DNA of 64,000 bases from Lobosporangium transversale (GCF_002105155.1 NW_019029022.1:186001-250000), one strand, 5' to 3'. Positions 23,285-62,817 are shown, counted from the first letter of the stretch. Notes: generated by a model from the sequence alone, not told the origin. Translations and numbers: made by a program.

Positions 23285-23699
23285 ATTGGATGGTAAAGAA
23301 AAAAATTGAAGTCGCAAAGAGTGATAAAGAGGGGGGATGTTGATACTTTTTATCCTCTGATCCAATGCAAAGCAGTAATCTTTTTTTTTTTTCTTGCATT
23401 AATAGCCCCCTATTCATGCGTATACTTATCAAGGTGGGCAAACAACATCAAAATAATCCCATCAAGCAGAAAGGTAAACGATGAGAACCAGAGCTAGAAG
23501 TTCTATCGGTAGAGACTATATTGAGTCAATAAAGAGTCGTAGAAAGCTCTTCTTCATCTCTCTACGAGTTTAGTTACAAATCCAAATGGTTTGCACCGTC
23601 AGAAGGTCAAAATATTTGTACTTTTAGTTTATTTATGATTCGGTACTTCTGTTCTCATCTCTTACCATTGTTTTTTATTGATATTAAAGTGTGCTTACA

Positions 23700-25925
23700 T
23701 ATGCTATATCAAAATGCCTCCTGACTCTGCGCCATCCAAAGCTGTAGAGGATGAAAATGATACTGTAGTTCAGAAAATCTCAGCTCTATGAAACCTCATC
23801 ATTCCTTCTGCATATTTGTTTGAGACTGCACTGCAAATGCATCACTACTGCCATTGATGATGCCGACTGTAGGCATATTAAAGTATGGCTCCTCTAGAGC
23901 TTTGAGGCTCCGATGTAGACGTATATCCAAAACTTGACAGAAAACGAAGCGATTCCATTTCTCAAGGACTCAGCTGGGAAAGAAGGCGAATGCCTCTACG
24001 CTTAAAATTTAACTGGACAATGAACCCGCGAAGGAAATTGCTCTAAAGGTGGCCAGAACTACCACCGGTTTTCTCAAGGCTTTTGAAACGTACTACCTCA
24101 ATTTCTTGACTGACGATCTCTTCTAGATAACAGACCTTGCTGTCTTACCACGTGAAGGTGCAAATACCTTCGCAGACAGAATAAGTCAATTGTTGAGGCT
24201 GTGGGCTACAACCCACGGGTGTACTCTTCGGAAAGTATTGTAATTAAATTTGCAGATGATTGGCTTTCAAAATGTTAGTACAATAGATGCTATTACTCTA
24301 TCTTGTAATAATCGCACAGTTGAGTGCAGAGTCAGCGTAATGCCTATGGGATACTACGGCTTCCTTATCGGAATAGATCTATTTTACCGCTTCGGCTTTG
24401 AGGCCCATGACGTAGCTACAGTTATTGCTTAAAAAGCGGATGATTTCTTAGTTGATGAAAGTAAACCGTCACTTGTGCCTTTTACTATGAAAGACCAAGA
24501 GCTAGAAACTGAATTCAGCGAACAGAAGAAGCAGTTTTTATTAGCCATTGAGCCCTTCCTACACCCCAATAGCCAGATTGGCCCTAAGAGTCACTACCCA
24601 TTAGACATTATGCGAGTCCATCTAATAGTCAGAGATGACGATGACTGTGCGATTCAAGAACACTCTCGTAGGGTTTACGCGCAAGTAGAATGGATGATGC
24701 CAATGCCACCGTACAGAAATGGTTAGGCAGCGGAATTATCGCTGAGGCGCCTAAAGGCAATCCCTACAACAACTCTCTCACGCTTGCAGCGAGAAAGAAC
24801 TTAGAAGGCGAAATTATTAAATATAGAGTCTGTCTTGGCCCAGGAACGCTGAACAAGCAGCTCGTGGATATTGATAACTTTCCTATGCTCATTGTATGCG
24901 AAATGTTGGAACGAGTTGCAGGTCATAGGTATTTACTACGATTGACTTGTCACAAGCATATTACGGATTACCTCTAGATGAAACAAGCCAACCCTACACT
25001 GTATTCAAAAACATGAATAAGCAATACATGTTTGTCTATGCCCCATTCGGGTTGCAGCCTATGACTAGTATCTTCCAAAAAGGAATGTCTCAATTGCTTG
25101 GAGATCTCCACTCGCTAACGTTTAAGTTGACGACATTGTCATCTTCTTCGACAGCATTGAAGAGCACACTGAGCATGTCAAAATGCTGATTACGCTCCTG
25201 ACAAGTGCCTTTACGATTATTAATAGGGGAGAAAGCAATTTCCATCGCATGAAAGTCTTGTTGCTCGGGTTCGTCATCGATGCAAATGGTGGAAGGATTA
25301 ACTCAGAAAAAGTCGCTACTGCTCAATCATGGACTCCTCCCACCGATGACAAAATGGTACAAAGATACCTTGGAATGTTTAACTACTTCAGAGAATATAT
25401 ACCCCTCTTTAGTACTTTGGCAGCACCTTTGGATAAATTGAGCAGCGCCAAAGGAAACTTTACACTTGGCGATCTGGAAATGCGTTGTTCCCAATCAATT
25501 AAAGCAGCTCATCATATCGGCACCAGTACCGTCATTCCCTGACTTCTCCTAGCCATTTTATGTGGTCACTAACGCATCCAATTAAGACATTGAAGAAGTG
25601 CCACGAGTGACGCCTACTGGTGGTCAGCAAAAGCAACTTTTAAAAGATACACACAGCTTTGGGTACCTTGGTATTGATGCCAAGGTCTTGTCATTGCAGC
25701 AGCAAGGGCATAACTGGCCCAAAATGAGTGAAGCATGCAATCGATGGATAAGGCGATGCTCTCCTTACTAACACTACAATATAGTACGTAAAGGCTATCA
25801 TCTACTCAAAGCGATACACGCTACTCTACCAGATGAGCACATAGCCTTTGATCTAGCTCAATTTCCTGTCAGTTATGCAAGCAACGAATACGCTCTTCTC
25901 GCCGTAGATGTATACATTAGATTTT
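23700..25925 (+). mobile_element. Degenerate Ty3/gypsy retrotransposon relic
   Basis: Fragmented RT (PYNNSLTLA, YRVCL, DLSQAY, PFGL, VDDIV), YLGMFNYFREYIP and integrase Zn-finger remnants, with many stops and frameshifts. No LTR pair was recognised. Confidence 0.85.
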
Positions 25926-25955
25926 TTTTTTATCGAACCAATACCGATCTCTGGA

Positions 25956-26290
25956 TCATCTTTCGTTACTTATTACATCCAGCCTACAGATGGCAAATGT
26001 TGCCATTGACATGCCAAACATTGAAGGCGAGGACACTAACACCGGTAGCTTGAAACTGGAAGGAAAGCCAGGAAATGCTTTTAATGGCAATAATACCTTT
26101 TTAGGCTTGGCTTTGTAAGGGTTCTCTGAAGGATAGATGGTTTTGTTCCTGCTGTTCCCACTACTTATTCTAGCTGTTGCTATAAGATGTATGAGCTCTC
26201 CTGTTTTGGTGACAAGTAGCTCTTTTGTAACAACACAGGAGTATACCAGCGAGTGCGGAAACCCATAATGAACGTCTATACTCGACATAA
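25956..26290 (-). pseudogene. Degenerate partial duplicate of the TCD locus (exon-3 piece joined to the sequence upstream of TCD)
   Basis: SENPYKAKPKK..LPL..FPS..KLPVLV..PSMFGMSMATFAICRL matches TCD at ~17570-17770. TKELLVTKTGELI matches ~19090-19190. Confidence 0.8.
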
Positions 26291-26374
26291 ATACACTTTC
26301 TTTTATTTTTTACTAGCGTGCTTGGTTAGGTAAAATCCTATTCTGTGAGGCTTGTGTAAAGAAGTGTATCAAAC

Positions 26375-28426
26375 TCATTCCTTGTCCGCAGGGAGAGCAA
26401 CGCCCATGAACCCAACACGCAAAGCTTCCACAGTATTATTGCTCCTGCGTGTATCATGCACCCACTTCTCAGATCTTTCCCACAGCTCCATCGCATCCTT
26501 GCCTTCTCGGACAGCATGTTCTGCTTCGACAGTGAGCTGAGGCGTAAACACAATAGCTTCTTTAGCAGCACTATGGTGCTTGTAATCGTCCACAGGCTGT
26601 GTGATCCTAGCTGGGAAAAGCTCTGCTCCATCTTTCGTCTTCATACCTGCAGTCTCTCCATACGCAAAGTGGATCCACATCGTCTGCACTCGCTCTGAAA
26701 ATCGCTTTTCTTCTTCAGTCAAGACCTTCTCGAGCGCATAGTCTGGACCAAACACATAGACTAAATCAATACCATGATGTGCACCCCAACCGTGAGATTC
26801 ATCTACTGCCTTGATGGAGCGATCAAAGTAGAACTGATATAGCTTGAGCCCTTCTCCTCTTTGCAACGATGATTGAGTGCTGTCCAGATCTTTGCGCTTG
26901 GAGAGCGCTCGTAAGGTGGAGAAAATCGGATAGGTGAATATGTAATCCTCAAACACATGCATAGATGCATGTTTTGCGTTCAAATCAGTCTCCACTTTCC
27001 CATACACCTTTTCCCACAGTTGTTGGCTAGCTTCATCAGGGGGACAGAATCTGCTATGTATCTTTGAAAACGCCTTTAGATTATCAGCACCCGTCAATGA
27101 TACAAACATCTCCCCTCCGTTCGACATATTTCCGATCATGACAGCCTTGACACCATGATCGAGCATATCGGCCTTGTGGACCTGTACGCGGATATCTTCA
27201 AGTATCATCACACCATCCACATAAGGTGAGAACAATCGGACTTTGTTAGACCCTGCAGCTCGACCCAACTCCTTGCTAGGTACTTTTTTTAGTAGCTCGA
27301 GCTTCTCTTTCCCACTCAGCTCCTTAGGGATATTAAAGTAGTCGACCAAAAAATCGAAAAAGAGCTTCCCTTCCATATGAGATCGAATAGTTGGGAGAGT
27401 ATTCGAAGCGCTGGAATGCATGATTGCTTGATGGAAGAGGCCGCGGTGTTGAGGAATCAACATGTGATAACCAATACTTGAAGCACCAGACAGTTCACCC
27501 ATAGCGGTGATATTAGAAGGATTGCCACCAAATGTCGCAATATTGTTGTGTACCCATTCAAACGCAAGACGCTGGTCTTGAAGTCCCCAGTTGCCAGCGA
27601 CTCGCTCATAGTCTGTCGTGAGCTTTGGATCCGACTTAATATCCTCTTCAAGCTCAGGGCAAGCGAAGAACCCATGGAAATTAAGTCGATAGTTGGGAAC
27701 AACCACGATCACAGGACGTCCAAGCTTAGCTGCTTGATGAACTAGATTGCTACCATCTGGAAAACTCGGTGTTGTTTGAGTACTTTCCTTCTCTCTCTCT
27801 TTTTTTTTTTTTACGGTCTTTCTTTCAGCATAATGATAAGAGGATACTCTTATTTTAAGAACTATCAAAGCTTACCATAGAGTTCCAAAGAATTGGCACC
27901 GTCACGGTACCCACCTCCATGGATAAACACAATGACAGCTGCACCTTCAGCATTCGCTACTGCTGGCTCGGTAGTTGCCTTCTTCAATGTGTCCTCATGC
28001 ACAAAAATGTTAAGGTTCAGACAGTGCTTTTCATCGAACTCGGCGGTCTCATCGTCAATGTCGACAGGTGTGCAAGAGCTAATCCTACTTGTAAGGCGGT
28101 CTTCTCTTTCACCTTGAGGACAGATGGGCCTTAGGAAGATGTAAAGCACACACAGATTTATCAGGATATCAATGAATATTGAATAGAACAGCCACCACAG
28201 AATACTTTAGTTATTACTACTGCTGTTGTTGAGCCACATACCCTTGTTTAGTAGCATCACGGACACCGGTCCATGGTTCAGGCTTGACAGCGGGTCTCCA
28301 TCTCTCTTGGACAACACCGTATGGGACATTCAAGTAACGGGCCACACGCTTGCTTAAATCCAAGGAGCCTTGGAGGATACCTTGATTTACAACATGGATT
28401 TGGGGTGAAGATGACAAATTAACCAT
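26375..28426 (-). CDS. Type-B carboxylesterase paralog 3 (near-identical to paralog 2; elbow GELSG)
   Basis: Exons and introns are almost identical to 21248-23290, with the same motifs. Confidence 0.88.
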
Positions 28427-28779
28427 ATTGGAAAGGCAAGGAAGAATTTTAGAGGACACAAGATGAATAGTAGGGGTACGTTATTCCAGAGAGTCCTCGA
28501 AAGATTCTCCTCTTCATCTTTATAGAAGCGTATGAGTATTAATCACTCTACTTTCCCACGCCAAACCACATCATGTTGTCGTCTTAAAAAAAAACATTGA
28601 TTTTTGCTTGCATAAATTTTTGAGATACGTACTGCAAGCATGCCATTGGCCCATCTCAACTGATGGGCCTCAGACTCCCAAAGCCTGGCCACTAGTCATC
28701 GCCATTGCGAGGGGCATGAGGGTCTGCTTCCTTCGTTGACAATGAGAAATACCATAATCGACATTAGAGTGTCTGCTTT

Positions 28780-29528
28780 GGGCGCATCTGCAGATTTACT
28801 GGAACCAGCACCAGTTTCTCCATGATTATCTCGGTCGACAATATGATGTGAAATTTGCAATGACTCCATCTCAACTCAAACCCGATTATTCAGCCTAACT
28901 GACCATTAGACTGAGATTGGCGTCTTTATTGCACTCGATGTTTGCTTTGCAAGCATTTCGGTGGAATCTGTCGCTTTTAGCAACAAAAAGCTGACCATTT
29001 GGCATGAGAAATCTTCAGATCTGCTCACACCCCCTAATTACCTGGCCAAAGTGATTGCTGATATCCCTCGCATCGTTCTCGCTAGAATCATGTTCCCAAT
29101 CCTTCTCCAACTGGCTGCCCAACCACTTCTACCTGCTGTTTATTATAAGCATAATGACTGCTATAGCCTTTGAGATGGGTTATCTACTTTTGACTTTGAC
29201 CCCTTCTCAGTGTGTGGTACTTGTCGGAGCAGGATTTACATTGGCTTGGGCAATTGTGTTTTCGGATGATGCACTTGATTTGGCTGATGCTATTGAAGCA
29301 GGAGGTGCAAGCGAGACCATGGGTCTAATTTCAAAACGCTCCTCTAGCTCACACGTTTAAGCGAGATCAGCTAGGGCCATGGCTTGTATTCTGCTTGAAT
29401 GGCATGCTTAGCATTCATCAACTTTAAATTAAACTGTACAGACTACCACAATCCCTTACTACCTTAATTAAAATCCGTTGACCACTTTATCATCCATCCT
29501 TCAAAAAGGTTAAGCGTTATTATGAATG

Positions 29529-29533
<5 letters not shown>
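28780..29533 (+). pseudogene. Decayed duplicate of the 3' end and 3' flank of the ABCG gene
   Basis: YLAKVIADIPRIVLA and GFTLAWAIVFS are present. The DNA aligns to ~6090-7047, including the 3' flank TTATTATGAATGGCCTT, with indels and stops. Confidence 0.85.
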
Positions 29534-29560
<27 letters not shown>

Positions 29561-29622
29561 CTCGATTTGTCGAATATAAAGATAGATGTCATGAAGTCCT
29601 CCAATATTTATTACTTTATTTT

Positions 29623-31608
29623 TTATGTCGAAGCACTAAGAACAGACTGCTCCTTTTGTTCTGCAAAGTGCGAGATTTTGTTCCAATAATTCAATACCCC
29701 AGCCGGCAGTCGATCGCTCTTTCCGAGTGTAATCTGACGATCAGCTCCAATCAAAATAGCCTCATCATTCTCCAGCACAGGAGTCTTCATGGTATCAGCA
29801 GACTTGACGGCCACATCTTTTTGGTTTGCAAATGAGATCCAGATTTTCTGCATTTCCTTACCCAGAGCCAACTCAGATGCTACCAAGACCTTTTCGACTG
29901 CAGGTGGGAGGAATATGTATGGCAATTCGCCTGCATGCATTGCGCCCAGACCTGGAACAAGTTGCTCCATCTTCTCAGTTGCTGCATCAAAATGATATCG
30001 AATGACCTTGAACCCGGCCTCGCTGCGTTGTTGATCAAGCCTCTTGAATGTGTCGACAAGCACCTGAGTAGTATATGTAAACTTGAAATCACCTGTATAG
30101 ACCCCAATGATTTTGGTCACATCCGCATCTGTCTCTGGATTTCCATAGACGGATTGGAAGAGTGCGGCCATCTGTGGATCGGGTATAAACCGGTTGAGCA
30201 GATGAGGCCATGTCTGCAAGTTGTGGTTTCCAAAAAGACCTGTAAACGCAGAGCCCTCATCCTTATTAGCGCCGATCAGGACTGATTTGAGACCAGGATC
30301 ATAAGCAGAGAGATCCTTAGCCAAAACTTGGATAGGGACTTTGGAAGGGATGACCTTGCCGCCGTCGTAGAAAGGACCATAGCCTTTAGCAGCAATGCCT
30401 TGTCCGACAATGCTCAATTCCTCACTTGGCACGGCTCTCAAGCGCTTCAACTTTTCTTTAGAGTCCAAGTCCAAGGGAATGTTTAATTTTGTCAAGAGAG
30501 TATCAAAAATAAGCTGGCCATCCGTGTGGATGAACATAGGGGAGATCGTGGAAACGGTACCGGATTGCATGATAGCGTGGTCGAAAAGCCCATGGTGTGA
30601 GGGTAAGAGCATATGGTAGTGAATGGAGATTGATCCTGCAGACTCACCCCATGCAATGACGTTCTTTGTATTGCCGCCGAACGCTGAAATATTCTCTCGA
30701 ACCCACTGGAACGCAAGCTTTTGATCCATCAAGCCCCAGTTACCGACGGATTGATCGTAAGAGACAGTAGGAGAAGAATTGGCAGTGTAATATTCCTGAG
30801 CATCTTGCTCCAGCTCCTTGGAGGCGAGGAATCCAAAGACATTCAGACGGTAATTGACAGTAACAACGATCACAGGTTGTTGCAATTGGATGGAGTGCTC
30901 AACAAAATTGATTGCATCTAAAAGGGGTTCATGGTATTTGAGTTAGTTAGCGCTTTTTTGAATTACGCAATCAAAAAAAAAAAAAAAAAAAAAAAAAAGG
31001 CTGCAGTACCATATAACGGTAATCCATTAGATCCGTCTTGGAAAGCTCCACCATGGATCCAGGTTAAGACGGGAATTGGCTCGGTTCCTTCTGGGGCGTT
31101 AAGGGCTTGGAGAGGCACAAAAATGTTGAGGTTGAGACAGTTTTTCTCATCATGGTCCAGTCCAAACTCATACTTGCCCTTTCCAGTTGGTACAGCGTCT
31201 TTTGGCAATAAAAGGTTAAGTGCGAACGTGGAAGGCTGCTGAGGACAGACAGGTCTAAAGTTTAAATGAAGGTGAGTTATGGGGAAGAGGAATCCACAAA
31301 AAAAAAAAAAAGAAAAGAAAAGAGCAAAAAGCATAAGAAAATAATTTCTGGAGGCAAACAGCTCCTTGGAGCTCATTCTAATGCTTGATAATAACAATAT
31401 ATATATGTATATATATTTACCCTTGTTCGGTAGCATCTCGAACACCGGACCATGGTTCAACCTTAACAGCTGCACGCCAGCGCTCTGGGACGATGGCATA
31501 TGGCACATTACGGAAGATTGCCACTTGACGAGCCTGGTCAACAAGGCCACGTAGGGTGCCATAGTTGGGAAGTGTGACATCAATGATATTATTATCTTTG
31601 ATCGTCAT
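29623..31608 (-). CDS. Type-B carboxylesterase paralog 4 (intact catalytic triad), 3 exons
   Basis: FRNVPYA..ERWR, EKNCLNLNIF, WIHGGAF, GESAG, GANKDEG, GAMHAGEL. Confidence 0.92.
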
Positions 31609-38813: not shown

Positions 38814-43873
<5,060 letters not shown>

Positions 43874-48958: not shown

Positions 48959-50457
48959 CCAATTGGTCTCTCTTAACGAACAGCGTTATCCCTTCGTCCG
49001 TAACAAGGGCAAATTTGCCATTATAAATGGGCTTAAAATCCAGCAATCCATGGGCATTGTCTCGAAAATTTATTTCGATGTCGAAATAAATGACCGAAAA
49101 CTAAATTGTCATGGAGCTATCCTGGCTTCTTTATTTGTGCAAATAAAAAACTCATGAAGACTTTCGCATGACCCTAGCATCCGCTTGGGAGTCCATTGTA
49201 TCGTTTATTTATTGACTAGTGTAATAGCAGTGATAATATTCGCCGCCGTAGTCTCGACTTGAAAGGAGGGCAATCTGAATTGATTCATACCCAAGGTGAT
49301 ACAAATATCTCTGTTGGAGTGAGTGGTGAACTGTGTGTGGTTCAGATGTAGTGGACATAAACGGCGAAAGAATGCATCGAAAGGATGTGAGCGGTTATGA
49401 GAGCAAGGAAGAAGGGTTGGTATGCCTGTTCAAGTCCTTGGCAAGAGAGCATGAGTAGCAGTTGTGATCAATGGTATAGTTTCTAGCCTATCTTCCACGT
49501 ACAACATTGCATTATTGTTGTTTTCAGACCTGGCACCAATCATGCGAGGTATTTCTTTTTCTGAGGGTTCCTTGTGTGTTAAACAGGCAGACAGAAAGCT
49601 TAGAAGAGATACAGACACAACGGTGAAAAAAATGTATGTGAGCAAACAGTTGCTGTGTTTATTTGTTGTCTGCACATGCCTTCTTTCATCGCGGGCTTTT
49701 TTTTTATTGTTTCGCATATCTTGTTTCCTTTTTTGTTCGTCAATCACTGTGTGCACGAATAAGCAGCTGAAGCATCTCTTTGGTTTCTGTACATGTATAA
49801 ACACATTTTACATCGCGGCGTCTTTTTTTGTTCAAAACACAAACGTTTTCCATTGGTGCCTCCAAACAAACTTTATTTTGGTAGCCACTCCACAATGGTT
49901 ATAACAATCCCTAGGAAAGGATCAAACGCGTTGGTATCAATCTCGCTTCTGTATTTCTAGATGCATATGTTTTGGCGATTGGTATCAACTATCAAATTCA
50001 CACATACACACACCAAACGACCGCCAAAAACCACAAGGCGCTGCGCAATATCACCATTAACAAGGCACCGTCCAGTAAGAAAGGGTGCTTAGATAGCTTT
50101 TACTCCAAGCAATAAGCGCATGCAACTACATCACTCCTATCTCCGCCATTGATGCCGGAACCTGAGAGCCAACGAATATCTCTGCTTTAACGCAATAGTA
50201 CTGGGGCTGTTGGATCAAAGAGCATCATATGAAGCCATCCTCTGATAAAAAAGCCTTTTTTTTCTTTAGTTGTTACCTTTGACAAGGATATAATCACCGA
50301 GTCATATCTGTCAATGCATTTATTACCCCTGTTCAAAATTATTAATCTTCTTTTATTCATTAAATTCCTCACAAAGCACAAAGCAAGGGCCGTCCCCAAT
50401 ACTAATCGTTAGTCCCTTTCTTGGATAATGTAAAGGCGCACCATCATTCTATATAGC

Positions 50458-52761
50458 GGAAGGGTCACATAGGAACCAGTTCCGGTCCATCTTTTCTGAC
50501 AAGGCGAGCATATTGGATGGGTGCACAGTTGGTATCAGTAACTGCCGTCAGCACGATAGGCCGGCATCCACCACGTCGGAAAAAGGCAAAAAAGAAGCAA
50601 CAGAAAAAACAAAAGCGGAAGCACAAAGGCAAGAAGCCCCACAGGGCTAAAAAAGAAGGTGCACCAGTTAGGAACTTGAAGAATGCTACGAAGGTTGAAC
50701 ACAGCTACAGCAGTAAGCACCCTATCAAGGCCTTAACAATTGGGTCCCTTAAGGCCTCCATGGCAAGGAAAGGCGGACTGGACGCAGATGAAAGGGATAA
50801 TATTGCAAGCCAGATCCGAGGGGCAGTTGTTGTCCTCAACCGACTACGCCGACATGCATACTGGGCGATTGCCTTGGACATTGAAAGGATCATGCGGTTA
50901 CCAGGGGCAGCAAGGTCGAGGAAAAAGGCACTGGACGAGGTCTTGGATAGCAATGATTATTCCTTCCGACTCGCCACCCTTCTTTTAAGCGGTCAAGGTG
51001 GGCCCCAATTCAGCTTACGCGAGGGCAAAAAAACAAGGGTAGAAGCGCCCCATTACCTCCTCGCTTATGAACATTTCAAGGCCACCACTGAACTTTCCCC
51101 AATAAAGGAAATAGACATCACATTGGGGACGTGCAAGGCTTTGATCCCAAAAAGATCTCATTTCCAAGAGCGTCAGAGCTACTAATGGGCCAAGTACAGA
51201 CATCATTAAAGCAGCACTACAGGAACCCAATGGTATAGCTTGTGTAGGGTATTTTCATGTATATTCTGCAATTAAATTCTCTTTATTCAGACTCTTTTTT
51301 TTTTTTTTCTAGTTTGATGTCGAGAAAACAAACGAAGATATGAGCGACATTGAGTTTTTTTTGCGGGAGAACAAAAAAGTGAAAAAATACTCAGACTTTC
51401 CTACGTCCTCCTGGTCACCCGGGTATGTGTATCTGTCTGAACACGCCCTAGTTGACATCCTCTGGGCGAACGAAGATACCAAGCAGCTACTGGAGCGTAT
51501 TCTGCCTCTCGACAATCCTTCCAAGACTGCAATGTTTGAGTGTGTACAGGGAACAAAAGGGGTTTTGATTCAGGCTCTCTTTTGTGACATTGGAGGCGAT
51601 CACATGGTTCTTGGATATCGAGACAAAGTATCCCTGCAGTCACAGGACAAAGAGCTAACTCGGTTCAAACTCAAAGGGACGATTTCTACCAACGGTCTAG
51701 TTCTGAATCTACTTGCCTATGACACAACCCAGACGAAGAGACAGCAGCAGTCTGACGTAGATGAAGAAGACCCCAGCCAAGAACTGGAGCTTTCTCAGGG
51801 ATTTCTCAACACGACGTGTTCAAAGGCAGCCGGTGAAGACCTGACAGATGAAGACTATGCAAACATAAACTGGAAGAGCTCACATTCAACAAACCAGGGC
51901 GGTACCATCCGCAAACAGCACAACTATCGTCGGATGCGATCCTGGTATTGTTAACGCCCTTACGTTTTCCTCCCTGGATCCTCACAACTCTAACTTGCGG
52001 CAAACAGTAAAGGTGAGAAGCAGGTTCTTGTACCTCCCCGTCCTCCGCTTCAATCACCTGTTGAACAAAAGGAAGCGTGAAAAAGGAATGATTGAGGTTG
52101 AGAGCGCCATCCCTGTGTTTGGAAGGGATACGTACTATGAGTACTTTCAATGGATGAACGAGGAGTCCCAGACACAGATAGGATCAAAGAATTTGGATGT
52201 GCTTCAAGAGTTCTACGAGCCCAGGTGGTACCTGAAAAAAAATGGGACCTACGAAAGGCTCAACGAGCTACGTTCGACTACGCGGTACAGCGAGTGTTGA
52301 AGATGCTCGGGGAAAAAGGAGTGCTTGTCGTCGGCCTAGGGTCCTTTGAAAGTAGTAAAGGAGTTCCCAGCAAGCACACTGCTATAACGAGACACCTTGT
52401 CACACAGGTATGGCTTTTTTTAAAAAAAGTAAGAAAAGCTGGAAAGCCATAGAACCCTTGCTAATAAACGACTGCCATTTGAAACGCTTAGGTCAGAGCA
52501 CGAGGACACTTCGCTGTAGGGGCGTCCGAATTTTACACCAGCGCCCGCTGTCCCCAACCCCTCTGCGATAGCTTTTTAGAGACTGTGTACCCTCGCTCTA
52601 AATATTGCCGGACATGTAAGGTATTCTTCGACCGTGACGCAGTAGGGGCGGAAAACATCGCAAGAATCGGTCTTGCTCAAATTGAAAGGCAAGAGAGGCC
52701 TGCAAAGTACAAGCCCACGGAAGAGTCGCCTGCTCCGGCTGCAAAGCGCGCACGACGCTAG
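50458..52761 (+). mobile_element. Fanzor (eukaryotic TnpB-like RNA-guided nuclease) gene, intron-containing, frameshifted
   Basis: RuvC-I TTIVGCDPG (D at 51938); GVLVVGLGSF; RuvC-II SEFYTS (E at 52528); Zn finger CPQPLC...CRTC; RuvC-III FDRDAVGAENI (D at 52636); C-terminal PAAKRARR*. Introns at 51233-51312 and 52408-52491. Confidence 0.85.
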
Positions 52762-53268
52762 ACACAAGTATTTGGGTGCCGGCACACCCACAAAAAATTT
52801 GTAAGTTCTGTTTATTTTCGTCTCCTGTATCCATCCTCTCTAATCTTTTGCCCCTGAATTTCTGGACTAACTTTAAAAACCGTACAGTTGTATCTACTAA
52901 TCAGCGCAAAGCCTTATAAGCTATAGGCGAGTTCACCTCACCTAGAAAGCACCACAGTCAGGCCTGTAGACTAGGTTATAAAGGCCAAGGAAACATCCTT
53001 CACAATAAAGTCTTCAGTTTTCCCCATATGTCTTGTTCTTGACCTGCAGTTCATCTTGCCATTTATCTTTCCCCCTTTTCCCAACAAGCATTTGTCTTCC
53101 GGTAACTCAGTTTGTGAGCTCATCTATAAAGCCCCCATCTTCTCTTCTGGCATCCTATGGTGCTGTTCGTCGTCAAGGTTATTTGCCTCTATTTTCTCTT
53201 GTTATTCTTGTTGACACACTTTGTTCTGTCCTCTATCTTTACCCCTTAAGCAAAGATACACCTACTAT

Positions 53269-53523
53269 TGTTGCAAAATTTAGGGGCAGATGTGGTAGGA
53301 GATTTAGGTGGATTATGAAGCCAGTCACTTCCAGCTGCAGATAGATAAATAATTCTAACACAATAAAAGAACACACACACTACTCAAAGACTGGACGAGA
53401 ACAGTCAGTACTCAAATGGCTCTTGTGTAAAAATAAGGAACAAGGAGCCAGATTTTCCTGAGCTGTTGCTCGTTAAATAGTTGGTGGCGAACCCTCTACA
53501 CGTGACTAAAACTAAAACCAACA
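53269..53523. mobile_element. 255-bp solo LTR of a different family nested in the 5' LTR
   Basis: TGTTG...CAACA termini flanked by a 4-bp direct repeat CTAT (53265-68 and 53524-27). The 3' LTR has the uninterrupted CACCTACTATTTACAACA. Confidence 0.85.
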
Positions 53524-53534
53524 CTATTTACAAC

Positions 53535-56500
53535 ATGGTGGAGACCCCTGGGCAACAGTCCGTTTGGCTACTGCTGCCATTCTTTGTGCGTCCCGTAGAA
53601 GCTTTTTGGTCCTTTGCCGAACAATCTACCGTTTTATCGACCCATTTGGCCAATCCTGTGAAGGAACAAACGCAGTGGAGAATCTTTTCCAAGGTCCTAT
53701 CATTCGTTCTTTCGCCCTCTTTGCCCTCTTGGCAAGAGAGCGCACTGCTTTTTCCTTTCATTTTTTCCTTCATCTTTTTCTTCTGGCTTTCCTTATTTCT
53801 TTGTATCCGATTGTCGCTGCAGCATACGACAATCCTAAACAACCACCAAACTCAAATCCCTTCTCCCGTTTCCCCTCTTACTTCGCCTGAACCAAAACCA
53901 GAGGATATTATCTGGCCACAGTTCGCAGTAGAGGACAAGATTCCGTTTGATGATTTCCTTGCGCGGTTCGAGCGTATATTCGAAGTAGCCAAGTTTAACG
54001 AATCCCAAAAGTTCGTCTGCTTCAATCGATGCCTTACTCGCGTTAGTCCTACAATTATCCAGCTGTCGAAAGCCTTGGACGAGAGAGATTATGAGACTGC
54101 CGTTAAGCGTCTTCGCCCTTACCTCGCGATTACCCAAGAGCAACGTCAAGCCCAAATCCTCGCGCAGTATGCAACCATTCAGCAAACACGCACTCAATCC
54201 TTAAAAGAATATTATGAGAGCTTTGAAAAACTGAATGCGACGCATGCCCTAGAACGTGAAGAATCTCTCGATCTCTTTTTCAAGCACTTGCAGTCACCCC
54301 TTCGGTCCCATGCTGCTATAATATATATGCTCGCGCAAGAAAAGAATGGGACTGTCCCTGTCTTTTACAAGCGGTTGACCACTTTCCTGGAGTGTTCCCC
54401 TCTTCCGACGAAACCCTCGGAGATTGTCCCAGCGCAAAGTGCACGCCCTACACAACCTCTCTGCTCCCACTGCTCAGGTCGCCATGCATCTGATCGATGC
54501 TATCAAAAATTTCCTGAGCTTCGTCCCCAAAGACAACAGCAACAGAGGCCAGCTCCTGTGGCAGTTGTTCAGCCAGCTACATCTCAGACCGAAACTCCTC
54601 CTAGGGTTTCCGTAATCGCTCCTGTCTCGGCCCTGTCTACGCCGCTATTTCCCTATGTTTCGCTTTCGTTTAACGATACGCCTGTAAAAGCGCTCATAGA
54701 CACAGGTGCATTTATCTCTTGCATATCATCGCACGTCCTTGCAACAACCAAGGTTCCAACACACTGCATCAAAAATGATTGCACTCCAGTTGTCGCTTGT
54801 GATGGACGTATCACTCAAACCAAAGGCTCTGTTATGGTTTTCGTCAACAATACTCTCGTGCGGTTCTCTGTTCTCGATGGGCTAAATACTGAGTTCCTCA
54901 TTGGTTGGGATTTGATCACAAAATTCAAATCGATCCTTACCACAGAAGGACTTTCCTTCGAGACCCAACCTCCTTGCGAAAATCCATTAGATGCCCCCAT
55001 CCTGTCACTTCCTCCTGCAATTAACTCTAAGGTTAATCTCTCCTTCGATGGGCAAACCAACAATGCAGTCAATACTCTACAGCCTGTCATGACTGTCTGT
55101 CATTATACCTTAGAGCATCGTATCAATCAGTTGCTTCGAGAAAACCATGATATCTTTGCTCCTAAACCACAAGCTCCGCCCATTTCTAACACCGTGACGT
55201 TCACAATTGACACTGGATCGTCGCCCCCAATCCAGATCCACACTCGTCGACCAAACCCGGTCCAACAAGCTATCATCGATGAACATATTGACGCCATGCT
55301 TGCAGACGGTATCATCGTCCCTTCATCCTCTCCATGGTGCTCCCCGGTCCGGATTGTTGATAAGCCTAATGGAGAAAAGCGATTTTGTATCGACTACCGA
55401 GCTGTCAATGCGGTGACGGTTCAAGATGCTTACCCGATTCCATACATGGACATGCTCTTGAATGCTCTAAGTGGTGCGACGACTTTCTCAAGTTTGGATT
55501 TAGCTGCAGCATACTGGCAGGTTCCTATTGATCCGGCTACTGCCAAGAAGCTCGCCTTTACAACTCATCGTGGTCTCTTTAAATGGACTAGAATGCCGTT
55601 CGGACCTTCTACTGCGCCTGCTACGCTCCAACGAGCCCTGAATTCCATCTTTAACCCACTCTTGTACAAGAAGGTCATCGTATACTTTGACGATATTATT
55701 GTCTACTCAGAAAATGTTGAACAGCATTTCCATGACCTCCAAGAAGTGCTAGCTATCCTTCGTGCGCATGGATTGTCCCTAAAACGATCTAAATGCCACC
55801 TTTTCCGATCATCGATCAAAGTCCTTGGTTTCATTGTTTCTGCTAATGGTGTAGAGGCCGACCCTGACAAGACTAGACCTATCGATAACTATCCAGTTCC
55901 CGCTTCCGCTAAAGACGTCCTGAGCTTTCTAGGGATGTGTGGAGTATATCGCTCGTTCATACCAAAATTTGCGATAATCGCTGCCCCACTCTACCAGCTC
56001 ACCAAGAAAAACGTCGTGTTTGAATGGTCAAGCGAAGCCCAAGAAGCTTTGAGACTCTGAAAGTTAAGCTGACTTCTGCCCCTGTTTTAGCTCATCCAGA
56101 TTTTTCTCGCCAATTCGAGATTCATAGTGACGCTGCTTGTAAGACGGGCGTTGGTGTCGTGCTATGCCAGCGAGATGATAATGGACATCGCCACCCTGTC
56201 GCCTATGCTTCCCGATCCTTGACCCATGCTGAGAAAAACTATTCTGTTGGAGAGCTTGAGGCTCTTGCCTTTGTCTGGGCTCTCAGAAAGAAATTTCATC
56301 ATTTTGTGAATGGATCCCACTTTCTTATTTTTACCGACCACAGCTCCCTCCAATTTCTCACAAAAGCGAAAGATCTGGACGGGCGCCTTGGCAGATGGGC
56401 ACTGATTCTCCAAAGGTATAATTATACCATTCATCACGTCCCGGGTATCCATCATCGCGTACCAGACGCCCTGTCTCGCCATCCTCTGCCATCAATTTCA

Positions 56501-57853
56501 GTACTTTTCCCAAGCCATGTCACTCCAATAGAAAACGAGGAACAACTCATTGCACAACAAGCCAATGACCCTTTTTGTGCTAGAATTATCGAGGAGTTGG
56601 AAGACCGGCCGGAGTATCGCCTTATTCGCGGCATTCTTTACCGCATTTACCTTGCCCCTCACAATCCTGAGCGTGCTCGCTTTCAGATCGTGGCGCCACT
56701 GATTTTTCATTCGTTCATTTTATACCAAGCTCATGATATCCCTTTAAGCGGACACCTTGGCCAGTCAAAAACTCTTCATCGCATTACCTCGCAATACTGG
56801 TGGCCTACAGTCAATAGGGATGTTAAGAGTTATATTCAAAGATGTAATGCCTGTCAAACTCTCAAGTCTGGACGCTCCTATTCGACGATCCAACACCCAA
56901 CGGTATCTAATGCGGCTTTCGTGAAACTTGCAGTCGATTACTATGGTCCTCTTCCAGAAACTTCTTCTGGCTTCAAGTACGTCGTTGTGATTCAAGATAT
57001 GTTCACGCGCTTTGTCCATCTGTTTCCTGCGAAAACAACGCAGGCGAGAGAATTGATTACCCTACTCGTCGACCAGCATTTCTCGCTTCATGGAGTTCCT
57101 GTCGAAGTCATGTCTGACAACGGCCCTCCCTTCACTGCAGACGACTATAAACATCTCGCCCAGCTTTTGAATATAACACCAAAGTTTGCTCCTGCTTACC
57201 ATCCTCAGTCTAATGGCATGGTCGAACGATTCATGGCTTCTCTTCGTACTCTCATAGCAGCCTATTTACAGCCAGATAGTCATTCTCGTTGGGATGAACA
57301 TTTGAGCAAGTTAGCGTTCGCATACAATACGGCGTTTAACCGACAAATCCAAGACACACCATTCTTCATGGTTTATGGTCGTGATCCCCGTCACCCACTG
57401 AATGCTATTGACTCTCTTGATTTGGAGCGTATGTTGATACAGAGCGCCAATCAACGTTCTCAGTACTTCCAGGCCCTATATCGCGCTCATAGCCTGGCTC
57501 TGACACTTCAAGATCGTGCTCCAGTAGAGGCTGATTCAGATGAGATCTGGCCTGTTGGTCTCGCCGTTTGGGTTTACACCCCACCTGTTTCTACTCGAGG
57601 TGCTAATCCCATGTTCGCTAAGTTCAAACGCCCCTGGACCGGCCCTTGTCGAATTACTCAAATTAGGAGTCATAATAGTCGTGATCTGACTACGGAAAAT
57701 GGTCAGCGATTATTAAACATTCATACCTCCAGACTCAAAAAATTCTATTCGAGTAACGGAACTACAATCGCACCGATCAATGCTCCCGAGGTCGAAACGG
57801 CCAACGTCCCTTTGCCTCCGTCTACTGAGGGGGATGTTGTGGCTGGTCATTAA
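53535..57853 (+). CDS. Gag-Pol polyprotein with a 1-nt frameshift at ~56050
   Basis: Zn knuckle CSHCSGRHASDRC, protease LIDTGA, RT RFCIDYR/MPFG/YFDD, RNase H SDAA/ELEALA/TDH, integrase HHCC plus D,D,E (VDY, SDNG, VERF) and GPY/F-like WTGPCRI. No chromodomain. The start is approximate. Confidence 0.9.
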
Positions 57854-58292
57854 TAGTTATATGAATTAATTATAACTATTTTATTTTTACTTTGTATCTA
57901 CTAATCGGGACATTCTGTCGATCCACAGTTAAAAGAACCTTTGTGCAAAGCCTTAAGCTATAGGTGAGTCCACCTCACCTAGAAAGCACCACAGTCAGGC
58001 CTGTAGGCTAAGTTATAAAAGCCAAAGAACTTCTTCCTCAATAAAGTCTCCAGTTTTCCCCATACGTCTTGTTCTTGCTATTATCTTTTCCCCTTTTCAC
58101 AACAAGCATTTGCCGTCCAGGAACTCAGTTTGTGAGCTAACCTATAAAGCTCCCATCTTTCTCTTTCGGCATCCTATGGCGCTGTTTGTCGTCAAGGTTG
58201 TTTGTCATTATTTTCTCTTGTTATTCTTGTTAACACTCTTTGTAGTGTCTATCTTTTTGCCCCTTAAGCATATACACCTACTATTTACAACA
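57835..58292 (+). repeat. 3' LTR (458 bp)
   Basis: Direct repeat of 52888-53535 and 60637-61073; TG...CA ends; follows the PPT. Confidence 0.92.
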
Positions 58293-58353
58293 ATATGACA
58301 TCACGTGAATTATATAGCTTTATATAGTATTAAAAGTCACCAGTTTCAACAAT

Positions 58354-58425
58354 TCCTAGTTGGTCCAGTGGTCAGGATTTGTCGCTCTCACCGACAAGGC
58401 CCGGGTTCGATCCCCGGACTGGGAA
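58354..58425 (+). tRNA. tRNA-Glu (CTC)
   Basis: Acceptor stem TCCTAGT/ACTGGGA; D-arm TGGTCCAGTGGTCAGGA; anticodon arm TGTCG-CT-CTC-AC-CGACA; T-loop GGTTCGATCC; T-run terminator downstream. Confidence 0.95.
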
Positions 58426-58440
58426 TCATATTTTAATCTA

Positions 58441-59705
58441 GGATAGCGATTTTTTTTTTTTTTGAAAAAAGATATTTGCACGGGCCCGTACAAATATTTA
58501 AAAAATCTATTTGCACTGCCCCGTACACACCTTATTTACACCGCTCCCCCCGTGCAAATAAAAAAAAGTTATTTGCACGGGGGGTCTTTTTTTTTATTTG
58601 TACGGGGTCTTTATTTTAGCCCTAAACACCATAACCAGGAAGCCTTCCATGACACAGGCTTAGATCTAGAGCCGCTGCCTAAGCATCAAATACTGACCAG
58701 AATATCTTATCAAGTTCGTATGTAGCTCAGAGTAGATGTTGGCATTCTTTATGCGACTGGGACTAAATACAGAATTACAAATGATTTATCTATAGTTGAA
58801 ATATACTATGCAGCTTTACTTTGCACTTTTGTTGGTTGCATTGTTATGGTTCCCCGATGCTTTCTTTCATTTAACGCGTGCATACATCTTAGGTATTTCC
58901 GTACACTATTAAGCACACAACGATGAATTCAGTTATTAGGAATCTCTAACGTGTAGTTTGTGTCGGTAGATGTACAACCAATCATACTACCATACTCATT
59001 GCTATGATGCATAGCGCGCCATGTTACTAGTCTCTTTCTTTTCTCTTAGATGTCCTTATCTCTGTCGTCCTTTATTAAGAACTCAAGCGCCCTCGGTACT
59101 ATTTTGTTTATCAAATTCATCAAAATACAATGGGTAGACCTCAGCTTATTTTGTGGAATATCTATCCTCTTACCCGATATTACTTGTCTTTTGATAGTTG
59201 GTGACAGTTCGCACTCAAAGCCGAACGTGCACAATCACCTATATCTCTATATCTAAGTGGCTAAAATATATTACATACATAGTAAGTTATATCAATTAGG
59301 TTAAAACATTGCACCAACTAAGAAGGAGGACAAAGAGAGGGTTCTTGTCTGCCCCACGTGAGTGGTAATTTAAATCATCGTATACGCTATATGGGTCTAA
59401 TGGTAGTATTTTTGTATGTCACAAATGAGCTGTTTGGCAGCTCCCACGGCGCTGCAACTTCCACCAGTAATAATTCCAGACCCCTCTCTACTCTAGACTC
59501 ACCTCCACTTATTTATATAAAGCCAGAATCATGTAGTCTGTAGGATACACGTTGCTGCTTGTAGATGAAAAAGAGACCCCGTGCAAATAACTTTTTTTTT
59601 ATTTGTACGGGGGGAGCAGTGTAAATAGAGGTACGGGGCAGTGCAAATAATTTTTTTTATAAGTAAAAATTTATTTGCACGGGGGCCGTACAAATAACTT
59701 CATCC
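58441..59705. mobile_element. Foldback/MITE-like non-autonomous element with ~130-bp inverted arms of reiterated TATTTG(C/T)ACGGG motifs
   Basis: 58468-58595 is the reverse complement of ~59570-59700. Outer GGAT...ATCC ends. No TSD was identified. Confidence 0.7.
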
Positions 59706-59719
59706 TTTTTTTTTTTTTT

Positions 59720-60253
59720 GGATTAATCTATTTGGCAGCCCATTGCCAAATATAATCAACTTTCAAGACTCTCTTTGGCAGCCCAGTTGCCAAATAATAT
59801 TCATTATTTACTTGGCAACCTACCCAGCGTTATTTGGCCTCTAACTATTTTTTTTTTTTTTTTTTTTTTTTTTCATTCCTAGGAACCGTATATGTGTATA
59901 ACGCTCATACTTTAAATTAATAAAGCTCCCATCTTCTACGTCATGGTTATGTGTAGTGACATTGTCTTGTCTCATTGAAAACTAATGACTTTTTTTTTCA
60001 AGTAGGTCGCTCATAAAGTTTTGGAGGTGCCATTTGGAGATCAATGCCTATGAGAGGTTTTCGCTCGGAGCAAACGCGTCTCACCTGCTACCTAGACGTC
60101 TTCAATAAATCATTCCTTAACCGTGTACATTGAAGGCTGTTTTGTGAAGATGTCATCGCCGCTGCCCTTAGTACCTCCGGCGGCATTAGCTGTGCAAGGC
60201 AATGTATCCACAGAACGCTGCCTGTTTTACCACTGATGTTATGACCCTGTTAT

Positions 60254-60288
<35 letters not shown>

Positions 60289-60434
60289 TGTATTTGGCAG
60301 CCCAGCTGCCACCCAAGAGTGCGAAGTTAAGTGGCAGCCCCCAGAAGTAGGCTGCCAAATAGAGGCAAAAATTACTATAATTGGTATGGGCTGCCAAATA
60401 ATATTTAGCAACTGGGCTGCCAATTATGTTATCT
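59720..60434. mobile_element. Second foldback/MITE-like element with reiterated ATTTGGCAGCCC motifs in inverted arms
   Basis: Left arm TTTGGCAGCCCAGTTGCCAAATA is inverted relative to right arm TATTTAGCAACTGGGCTGCCAA. The motif is repeated several times at each end. Confidence 0.6.
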
Positions 60435-60636: not shown

Positions 60637-61073
60637 TGGTGTGACTGGTCATTAAAATTAATTTCAGTTTATTTTGTATCCACTAATCTGTCGAACCAGC
60701 TTAAGGAATCTTTGCGCAAAAGCCCTTTGTAGTCATAGGCGGGTCCGCCTCACCTAGAAACTACCGAGTATAAAAGCCAAAGAAACTTCCTTCTTAATAA
60801 AGTCTTCAGTTTTCCCCAAATGTCTTATTCTTCACCTGCAGTTCATCTTGCCATTTATCTTTTTCCCCTTTTCACAACAAGCATTTGTCTTCCGGTAACT
60901 CAGTTTGTGAGCTCACCTATAAAGCTCCCATCTTTTGACATTCTATGGTGCTGTTTGTAGTCAAGGTTATTTGACTCTATTTTCTCTTGTTAATCTTGTT
61001 GACACCCTTTGTCCTGCCTTTTCCTGATTGTGTCTATCTTTCTGTCCCTTAAGCAAAGATATTTTTTACAACA
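60637..61073 (+). repeat. Solo LTR of the same family as the 52.9-58.3 kb gypsy element
   Basis: Aligns over its length with the 3' LTR (CTGGTCATTAA, CCTCACCTAGAAA, AATAAAGTCTTCAGTTTTCCCC, ...TTTACAACA). Confidence 0.88.
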
Positions 61074-61614
61074 ATGCCACCAAACCAATTTATTATGATT
61101 AAGATATGTGGGGTCTATATGTTGTCTAAATAGTCCTCCCCATAAAAAAACACCATCTAGACCAAGCATAGAAATAAAGAGATTAGTCAAGAAAGCACTG
61201 TCGAGCTAATACTTACAACTTTTTCAAGACGAAGGCCTTTCCCGACCTAGTCATGTTTGTAGTAGCTCATGAAAAATTTTAGACAGACAAATAGTAACCA
61301 GGGAGCAGAAGTGAGAATAGGATGTGGATTCACACACCACATCCATGGGGCATTTATCCAAATTTGTATCAAAATAAAACTGCAAGTTTGTCTCGGGCAC
61401 CACACCATGGGGCATAGAGCTGTTAGTATGTCTGTATTATAAATTTTCATGTAACACGTGTACTGTGAAATATGCAACTGATCATATCCTATTGTTGTTG
61501 CCGGCTTGGTGTCTTTCCTCCCCATGGATTCAAAGAAGGCTATTTTGGTATCTCGAATTTGGACTCAACCTGTCAGTGAGCATTGGTGCAACGCATATAA
61601 GGCACACAGGCTGT

Positions 61615-62229
61615 TGACGAGCCTACTTCTCACCTTCACCGTTTGACGCAGGTCAGGGTTGTGACGGTCTAGCGAAGAAAACGTAAGGGCATTAACAATA
61701 CCAGGATCGCATTAGACGGTAGTTGTGGTATTTGCAGATGAGCATCGCCCTAGCTCATGGAATATGAGTCCAACGTTTTCAAGAAGTTTGGGGCTCCTCT
61801 TCCAGTTTATGTTTGCGTAGTCTTCATCTGTCAGGTCTTCACCGGCTGCCTTTAAAACACGCCGTGTTAAGGAATCCTTGAGAAAGTTTCAATTCCTGGC
61901 TGAGATCTTCTTCATCTACGTCAGACTGCTGCTGTCTCTTCGTCTGGACTGTGTCATAGGCAAGTGGATTCAGAACAAGGCCATTGGTAAAATCGTTCCT
62001 TTGAGTTTGAGCCGAGTTATACCTTTGTCTTGTGCCTGTAGGGGTACCTTGTCTTGATAGCCATGAAACATGCGATCTCCTTCAATGTCACAAAGAGAGC
62101 CTGTATCTAGACCTCTTTTGTTCCCTGTACACATTCAAACACTGCAGCCTTGGAAGGATTGTCGAGAGGATGTCAGTTAGGACGTGTTCAGACAGATACA
62201 CATACCGAGGGGGGACGTAAGGAAGTCTG
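61615..62229 (-). pseudogene. Second, inverted and decayed Fanzor fragment
   Basis: The reverse complement aligns to ~51390-52030 (GGTATGTGTATCTGTCTGAACAC, CAGACGAAGAGACAGCAGCAGTCTGACGTAGATGAAGAAGA, TGCGATCCTGGTATTGTTAA). A stop codon lies two codons before the RuvC-I Asp. Confidence 0.85.
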
Positions 62230-62817
62230 TTTTTTTTTTTTTTTTTTTTTTTTCATTTCTTGTTGATTGTCATGGCGAAGGCTTGGTGGTGGTGGCAGTG
62301 GTGGTGGTAGTAGCAGATCCACAAAAAGGAAATTTTCAGATGAAGGAGGAGGAGGAGTAGAGGGATCAAGACCACCGAAAGGACCTTTGCTGGGTCCAGG
62401 AGGAGGGGGAGAGACAAGCCGGCAACAACAGTAGGACACAATCTACTACAAACATGACTAGGTCCAGAAAGGCCTTCGTCTTAAAAAAATTGTAAGTATT
62501 GGCTCGATATACTTTTTTTTCTTGGTTAATTTATTTATTTATTTATTTCTGTGTTCTAATACATTTCTTCTTTTTACAATAGATGGAATGTCTCGTTTTT
62601 TAATGGGACGGACTATATGTTGATTTTACCCCCTATTGTCCAGTAGGAGAACAAGAAAAAACGTTGACTATCCCCCCTTTATTTTATTTTTTTTTTTTTG
62701 ACGCGAAATTGTAAAGTTCTTTTGATTTTGAAAACCAGTGTCCGCAAATTATCAAGAAAAAACATTGGTGAGAGTTGGTCATGCATGTTTCCAGTGACAA
62801 CAATTCGTTCTTTCCTC

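Follow-up and report, generated by a model that had tools for sequence, protein, structure and literature searches.

A decayed Fanzor1 copy in Lobosporangium transversale, with an intron in its predicted omegaRNA region and relatives that carry a predicted EXO1-like nuclease domain

The closest described systems to the gene treated here are the Fanzor1 (Fz1) RNA-guided nucleases SpuFz1, PpFz1 and GtFz1. A DPG motif, a Gly after the RuvC-II strand and a Glu beside the zinc finger are signatures described earlier (PMC10711439, PMC10530073). In the solved SpuFz1 and PpFz1 RNAs a first stem-loop (SL1) is followed by one further stem and then by the guide, and the second stem (SL2) of PpFz1 has only four pairs (PMC11423790). 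In this study we analysed a window of 64,000 nucleotides from Lobosporangium transversale (GCF_002105155.1 NW_019029022.1:186001-250000; positions are counted from its first letter), in which a Fanzor1 gene, interrupted by introns and encoding a D-E-D triad and a zinc finger, lies at 50435-52761 on the plus strand.

Supplementary file 3 of PMC10432273 (Saito 2023) lists two L. transversale FZ1 proteins, one for each of the two Fanzor families found in the window. Because of this listing the family must be regarded as already catalogued, and the evidence supports the window gene as a copy of it. The copy is dead, its protein part and its RNA part alike being pseudogenic. Taken as a whole, the data point with moderate confidence to an end-truncated remnant of a multicopy Mortierellaceae Fanzor1, the intact form of which would likely be a fusion of a 5' nuclease and a Fanzor, with a guide RNA completed by the spliceosome.

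Gene structure and state of the copy

All motifs named in the original prediction, from TTIVGCDPG to PAAKRARR, were found at the positions and in the order claimed. The two predicted coding introns, 51233-51312 (80 nt) and 52408-52491 (84 nt), both run from GT to AG in phase 0. The gene had been predicted to start at 50458; homology to the family really begins at about 50432-50435. The window copy has the DPG signature of RuvC-I and the triad with the alternative Glu beside the zinc finger, the catalytic codons being those of Asp at 51938 (RuvC-I), Glu at 52528 and Asp at 52636 (RuvC-III). A Gly (52333) appears to end the hydrophobic RuvC-II strand in the window and in all aligned relatives that span it, a position aligned among relatives only. 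In the window and its relatives a WED-type motif reads TNG, at the apparent place and presumed equivalent of TDG (PMC10711439). The last exon, 52492-52761, is open as predicted and encodes 89 residues followed by a stop. It matched the Pfam family PF07282 (Cas12f1-like_TNB) with an E-value of 2.5e-6 and 28 bits, which exceeds the Pfam cut-off of 26.3, and the exon is therefore not a chance open frame.

A protein search with the last exon returned 26 proteins, 25 from L. transversale and one from Entomortierella lignicola. Of these, 23 are members of the family (61-98% identity in the matched part). The closest proteins are L. transversale paralogues, at up to 97% identity. The identity as a Fanzor1-like protein, proposed from the sequence, agreed with structure and profile searches: SpuFz1 gave the top three Foldseek matches (best E 6.1e-7) for an AlphaFold model of the paralogue P0012 (mean predicted local distance difference test score, pLDDT, 56.6), followed by Cas12f, GtFz1, PpFz1, Fanzor2 and TnpB, and it was the sole match of the family profile in the PDB (E 0.004). 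A search independent of Foldseek gave RuvC-type folds (RuvC/Cas12f/TnpB) throughout, with Cas12f as the best (Z 12.4, root mean square deviation 4.2, 183 aligned). When P0012 and P0032 were searched against the PDB as single sequences, no true relative came up; profiles and folds alone revealed relatives. No relative was detected in the viral contigs searched, and an Atlas search led to Cas12f1-like TNB / DUF8286 clusters, mostly viral. The basic tail (PAAKRARR) is retained in 18 of the 23 family models and absent from the Mortierella alpina relatives; these do, however, have counterparts to a long basic stretch at about 50570-50660. The tail is a putative nuclear localisation signal, which the original prediction likened to the c-Myc type.

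Splicing was followed in contigs of public sequencing runs and in nine metagenome loci (L001-L009), seven of them from one metagenome. The runs X1, X2 and X3 are DNA. X7 is RNA by the guess of the tool only, no run being recorded as RNA, and its GT..AG skips, absent from the DNA runs, fit this guess. A single X7 contig (depth 86) skips intron 1, which no contig of the three DNA runs does, and L002 has a donor in the same register. For intron 2, the acceptor was found at the matching position in all nine metagenome loci (in one of them a codon shorter); the gene had been predicted on the understanding that this intron is conserved or spliced in its family, and because of the conserved acceptor it withstood that test. 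The intron 2 donor was present in the three metagenome loci printed, and 17 of the 23 family gene models join there. No RNA joint for intron 2 was seen among the X7 joints displayed, and one X7 contig retains part of it. A further skip in X7, 50927-51037, was rejected as an intron; because its ends are not canonical we read it as a deletion in that paralogue.

Seven indels were called against paralogues, a second family fragment in the window and contigs of the public runs. They comprise a loss of 8 nt at about 50564, a gain of one at 51000, a loss of 7 nt after 51038, one base missing from the G run 51125-51128, 28 nt missing at 51879/80, one base at about 51902 and one from the A8 run 52235-52242. 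Frameshifts had been predicted at about 51117, 51878 and 52238. Damage was found at all three, the first being the G run and the second the 28-nt deletion together with the single base behind it, but the full number is seven and not three. Read in ten pieces the copy gives 716 residues and no internal stop, and the exon 50435..51232 contributes five pieces, each read without a stop.

Both ends of the copy are also lost. At the 5' side the main family contig of X2 has 180 unlike letters ahead of 50391, and a PIN profile gave no match in the six frames of the window; the same profile scores L002 with 113 bits and L008 with 149 bits. A candidate intron tail, 50391..50434, leads up to the onset of homology at about 50432-50435. 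A remnant of a helix-three-turn-helix (H3TH) at about 49880-50000 was considered and rejected, as neither tblastn nor the PIN profile matched there. The stretch 49400-50390 is multicopy DNA with no recognised gene; one X1 contig joins 49797 to 51291, and the stretch may be the left part of the same element. At the 3' side the break between element and long terminal repeat (LTR) at 52887/52888 coincides with an intron acceptor AG, which may be chance.

Element ends were mapped from run contigs and metagenome loci. The family is multicopy, with 23 gene models and a sharp right end in the contigs. When the 13-nt right end was looked for in inverted orientation, all matches had 3 mismatches and none was convincing. 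The A8 run had been suspected of being a sequencing error. Such an error would not rescue the copy, because three multi-base deletions and both lost ends remain.

An intron in the predicted omegaRNA region

Behind the stop codon follow a hairpin (52773-52790), an A-rich linker and then an intron, 52801-52887, whose GTAAGT donor, CTAAC branch and TACAG acceptor agree with the U2 consensus. In DNA contigs of other copies (five of X1, six of X2) the same 13 letters follow 52887, after which the conserved right-end region stops and the flanks diverge; the window copy itself is without this right end. One X7 contig passes from 52800 straight into those 13 letters and thus skips the intron. We conclude that 52801-52887 is a spliceosomal intron, which is kept in DNA contigs and removed in a contig of X7, the run guessed to be RNA.

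The same layout recurs among the metagenome loci. A GTAAGT donor after the hairpin, an A-run and TT was present in five of the nine, 29-69 nt past the stop; in random stretches of 55 nt GTAAGT is found in 1.1-1.6%. In three of the five donor-bearing loci, motifs predict a micro-exon of 6 or 12 nt and behind it a second intron. L005 is without the first intron and displays directly the junction that splicing makes in L004 and L006. As L001 has no donor, two metagenome relatives (L001 and L005) appear intronless there.

A second Fanzor family, whose 3' end lies at 62285-62616, showed a corresponding intron. Here X7 gave a called GT..AG joint from 62491 to 62583, 91 nt (one contig, depth 241.5); the contig is identical to the window over 62318-62491, and the joint was seen in no DNA run. 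This element ends 34 nt past the acceptor, with its right end at about 62616, as seen from loose contig ends behind 62616-62623 and a collapse of DNA depth after 62619.

Folding of the region gave the SL1 hairpin at this place in 9 of 9 sequences, with z-scores from -3.7 to +0.8, mostly not significant alone. A 5-bp stem (SL2), whose 5' arm lies across the splice junction, closes at most 1 nt from the independently mapped right end in all three cases. In random sequence such a junction stem at the end arises in 4-5% of trials per case. The arms differ between families, TTATC pairing with GATAA and TATGG with CTATA. The window RNA region matches the solved RNAs in layout, and no sequence likeness was seen to those in Table S3 (PMC11423790).

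The N-terminal nuclease domain of relatives and a proposed mechanism

A search with the 5' exon yielded three L. transversale models whose upstream parts reach into PIN-type motifs; two of them, P0027 and P0028, join these motifs to the sequence matched from 50432 on. A profile search for longer proteins found four of 1,053-1,186 residues, from M. alpina, Benniella and one further assembly. P0031 (1,183 residues) and P0032 (1,186 residues) each combine the complete N-terminal domain with PF07282 in a single protein, and most of this arrangement is also present in P0030 and P0033. In an AlphaFold model of P0032 (pLDDT 56.2) residues 19-333 matched EXO1 (Z 14.1, root mean square deviation 4.2, 265 aligned), FEN1 (Z 11.9) and XRN2 (Z 10.1). 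Residues 443-1184 matched PpFz1, GtFz1 and SpuFz1 (Z 11.4-11.6, about 390-425 positions aligned), with SpuFz1 as the top Foldseek match of the model. A PIN/FEN fold with helical arch and H3TH was found for the relatives' domain on this low-confidence model. A profile of the long relatives matched FEN1 (E 4e-4) and Rad2 (E 0.028), and the domain stays below Pfam cut-offs (XPG_I, E 0.028 for P0027).

Enzymes of the EXO1/FEN1/XPG family share a pattern of seven conserved acidic residues in the active site. Seven acidic motif residues are retained in P0031, P0032 and P0033; in P0032 they are D34, D85, E171, D173, D191, D193 and D243, of which the last three align to FEN1. Two introns of the GT..AG type lie between the PIN exon and the Fanzor part in L002; their removal joins the two in frame, with 698 residues open up to the next intron. 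The supplement table of PMC10432273 contains 13 PIN-motif matches, at least nine of which are Mortierellaceae FZ1 rows of 774-1,944 residues. We conclude that the full-length Mortierellaceae relatives (about 1,050-1,190 residues) likely fuse a predicted 5' nuclease of the EXO1/FEN1 type to the Fanzor. The original prediction described the Fanzor part correctly; the family's N-terminal nuclease and the intron of the guide-RNA region both escaped it. About 4 kb downstream of its PIN-Fanzor gene, L008 carries on the same contig the 3' fragment of a second, different Fanzor (L008:8424-8603).

We propose the following course for an intact element. The element would be transcribed as a single pre-mRNA running past its right end, and the spliceosome would remove the coding introns and the 3' intron, so that SL1 and the A-rich linker would come to lie directly before the short terminal exon. 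The last stem, SL2, would thereby be created beside a guide derived from the flank, and we hold it likely that this splicing step would give a working guide. The omegaRNA would then be trimmed from the 3' region and loaded on the Fanzor, and the complex would cut the empty allele of the insertion site. EXO1 is a DNA end-resection enzyme, and in the last step the fused 5' nuclease would resect the cut ends, after which repair would copy the element from the filled sister or homologue (homing). That resection is the job of the extra domain has, in our estimate, slightly less than an even chance. Guide function and resection are modelled on SpuFz1 (PMC10432273), on TnpB homing (discussion of PMC10432273) and on EXO1 biology. 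In a wider and rather doubtful extension, the Mortierellaceae Fanzor1 elements might be self-contained homing machines, possibly with no transposase of their own, in which a spliceosome-built scaffold (in some families of three exons, with a micro-exon of 6-12 nt) is combined with an EXO1-like resection that steers repair.

Several observations weigh against this reading. A left end, a terminal inverted repeat, a target-site duplication, a target-adjacent motif (TAM) and a transposase were not found, nor was an intact copy seen in L. transversale. Confidence is low for both AlphaFold models (mean pLDDT 56-57, from alignments of 10-11 sequences). The X7 contig that splices intron 1 also carries an exon deletion of about 104 nt. 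It could further be argued that the window copy is itself intact and its frameshifts are sequencing errors: three of the breaks are single bases in homopolymer runs, the short-read contigs mostly have G5 and A9 (A9 in 139.9 of 149.8 depth in X2 and in 141.6 of 174 in X3), and only 6 of the 23 gene models read through the A run, a pattern expected of systematic long-read error. The deletions of 8, 7 and 28 nt, the lost 5' exons and the lost right end are, however, not homopolymer errors, and in X1 A9 makes up 407.6 of 3,937 depth, about a tenth; we regard an intact copy as extremely improbable. It also appears very unlikely that the PIN nuclease and the Fanzor are two neighbouring genes wrongly joined by gene predictors. 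No L. transversale model spans both ends and most begin at exon 2, as separate genes would have it, whereas the single proteins from separate assemblies, the in-frame splice path of L002 and the nine Mortierellaceae FZ1 rows with a PIN motif in Saito's table speak for the fusion.

The 3' intron might instead be an ordinary intron of the untranslated region (UTR) that aids expression, with the omegaRNA working with the intron looped out or being made otherwise. Intron-retaining contigs exist in X7, and the intron would be dispensable because intronless relatives (L001, L005) exist at this position. The region beyond SL1 may not be constrained (PMC11423790), and a looser energy test of folding was weak, with the two window families alone doing better than random sequence (3.8% and 0.9%) and six further cases at 9-62%. 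Other points weigh against the splicing reading itself. Two of the three stem cases share the second motif, L004 and L006 are 94% alike, and L008 and L009 are without such a 3' layout. The RNA support comes from one run of guessed kind with one contig per junction; the junction of the first family is a loose contig end and not a called joint, the joint of the second has letters in between marked as not known, and contigs cannot reveal a short mature omegaRNA. Against a mere UTR intron stand its one fixed point in otherwise differing sequences and the terminal exon of the first family, which is only 13 nt long; the stem closing at the element end needs bases of both exons. We consider this alternative unlikely and prefer a splicing step that completes the scaffold. 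The EXO1/FEN1-like domain, in turn, might not resect double-strand breaks. It might trim the 5' end of the omegaRNA from the mRNA or clip flaps during copying of the element. A 5' processing step would be needed because the omegaRNA region starts right after the stop and the spliced contigs reach into coding sequence; the domain matches the folds of XRN2 and FEN1 as well, and enzymes of the FEN family cleave both flaps and RNA:DNA hybrids. EXO1 is nevertheless the best structural match, and SpuFz1 yields mature omegaRNA without such a domain (PMC10432273), which makes trimming or flap cutting somewhat unlikely as the role of the domain.

Other features of the window and comparison with known systems

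The features of the two Fanzor families are collected in Table 1. We treated the second-family fragments as separate decayed insertions and not as inverted repeats of one element, which is not proven. Directly behind the truncated copy, 52888-58290 is a Ty3/gypsy retrotransposon with long gag-protease-reverse transcriptase and RNaseH-integrase frames; its two LTRs are just 82% alike although the frames are open. Its 3' LTR stops some 65 nt upstream of a tRNA-Glu(CTC) gene (58353-58427), as tRNA-targeting Ty3 elements do, and there is a solo LTR at about 60640-61075. A short element with inverted repeats inside it, similar to miniature inverted-repeat transposable elements, is present in two copies of opposite orientation (79% over 136 nt) at 58452-58607 and 59568-59700, with further short related repeats at 59729-60423. 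Tandem carboxylesterase-like genes, named from motifs, occupy 21227-30942; two of them are 96% alike and 5,142 nt apart, and a Ty3 reverse-transcriptase remnant (25126-25542) lies between them. A pentafunctional AROM gene at 38814-43873, recognised from its translation, fits a fungal host.

Table 1. Features of the two Fanzor families in the window and in metagenome loci (L003, L004, L006).
Feature	Coordinates	Strand	Basis
5' break and candidate intron tail; upstream PIN/EXO exons missing	50391..50434	+	X2 and X3 main family contigs begin at 50391
Coding exon: linker, lysine/arginine-rich stretch, start of Fanzor lobe	50435..51232	+	tblastn of P0027 and P0028; contigs
Intron 1, GT..AG, phase 0	51233..51312	+	Joint in one X7 contig, depth 86
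Coding exon: TNG motif, RuvC-I Asp (51938), RuvC-II strand with Gly (52333)	51313..52407	+	Motifs, paralogue alignments, contigs
Intron 2, GT..AG, phase 0	52408..52491	+	Acceptor matched in 9/9 metagenome loci
Last coding exon: Glu 52528, CxxxxC..CxxC zinc finger, Asp 52636, basic tail, stop 52759-52761	52492..52761	+	Motifs, PF07282
6-bp hairpin after the stop (SL1)	52773..52790	+	-8.9 kcal/mol, z -1.1
Spliceosomal intron within the predicted omegaRNA region, 87 nt	52801..52887	+	GTAAGT, CTAAC, TACAG; X7 contig
3' break: 13-nt right end of the family missing, 5'-truncated Ty3/gypsy LTR directly after	52887..52888	+	Loose contig ends; LTR alignment
Further right-end copy of second family, predicted 60-nt intron at the same place	61130..61275	-	83% to 62443-62540; donor, branch and acceptor motifs
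Internal fragment of another copy of the main gene's family, more decayed than the first	61616..62254	-	82% over 553 nt; retains the 28 nt missing at 51879/80
3' end of second Fanzor family (P0022 type): open reading frame end, hairpin, intron 62492-62582, 34-nt terminal exon	62285..62616	+	96% to P0022 C-terminus
Tandem post-stop introns, micro-exon of 12 or 6 nt	L003:743-835, L004:541-642, L006:1791-1885		Motif prediction

With regard to the literature, both window families correspond to entries of PMC10432273. ORZ22893.1 (265 residues, FZ1) carries the family motifs and has the length of P0017, a likeness by motifs and length, and XP_021884711.1 (834 residues, FZ1) matches the P0022/P0026 family with the 3' end at 62285-62616. 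Both L. transversale FZ1 rows are named hypothetical proteins, and the main text of PMC10432273 is without mention of an exonuclease, a fusion, Mortierellaceae or an intron. In the openly available full texts searched we found no paper mentioning Fanzor together with Mortierellaceae, and among the matches listed no description of an EXO1-like Fanzor fusion or of a spliced Fanzor right-end RNA. The family is thus known as FZ1, and the EXO1-like fusion and the spliced right-end RNA, neither of which we found in print, are apparently new.

If the guide needs splicing, a programmable nuclease of bacterial origin would depend on the eukaryotic spliceosome for its targeting RNA, which bears on how omegaRNAs arise in eukaryotes. 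Scaffolds copied from genomic DNA would then fail in heterologous tests, and inactive-looking Fanzors may need spliced RNA. The fusion with a 5' nuclease would offer a direct test of whether Fanzors promote recombinational repair and would be a natural counterpart of engineered exonuclease-editor fusions.

The family shares with SpuFz1 (8GKH, 9CEU-9CEZ), PpFz1 (9CF0/9CF1) and GtFz1 (9CER) the WED/REC/RuvC/TNB fold, the DPG motif, the alternative Glu with what appears to be the RuvC-II Gly, and the zinc finger. A short predicted right-end RNA region from the stop codon to the element end, two predicted stem-loops and Ty3 insertions beside copies are likewise common to them (PMC10432273, PMC11423790). 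It is closer to Fz1 than to Fz2 or TnpB and has an enlarged recognition lobe: P0032 matches three Fz1 structures, and the family stands on the FZ1 branch of the PMC10432273 listing. In contrast to known Fz1 proteins, mostly of 600-700 residues, the relatives reach about 1,050-1,190 with their N-terminal domain of EXO1/FEN1 fold; the apparent WED motif is TNG and not TDG, one or two spliceosomal introns interrupt the RNA region, and no terminal inverted repeat was found. With the EXO1/FEN1/XPG (Rad2) 5' nucleases (human EXO1 5V05, FEN1 1A76) P0032 shares the fold over residues 19-333 and the acidic motifs, whereas the identity is only about 15-20% and the domain is fused to a mobile RNA-guided nuclease; it is absent from the window copy. 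In IStrons (TnpB with a group I intron; PMC13565253) splicing and omegaRNA likewise share one transposon transcript. An IStron, however, is in its entirety a self-splicing intron, and its splicing rules out omegaRNA function. In the present family the intron is short, spliceosomal and placed within the scaffold, which its splicing would create; if true, this would be the reverse of the IStron conflict.

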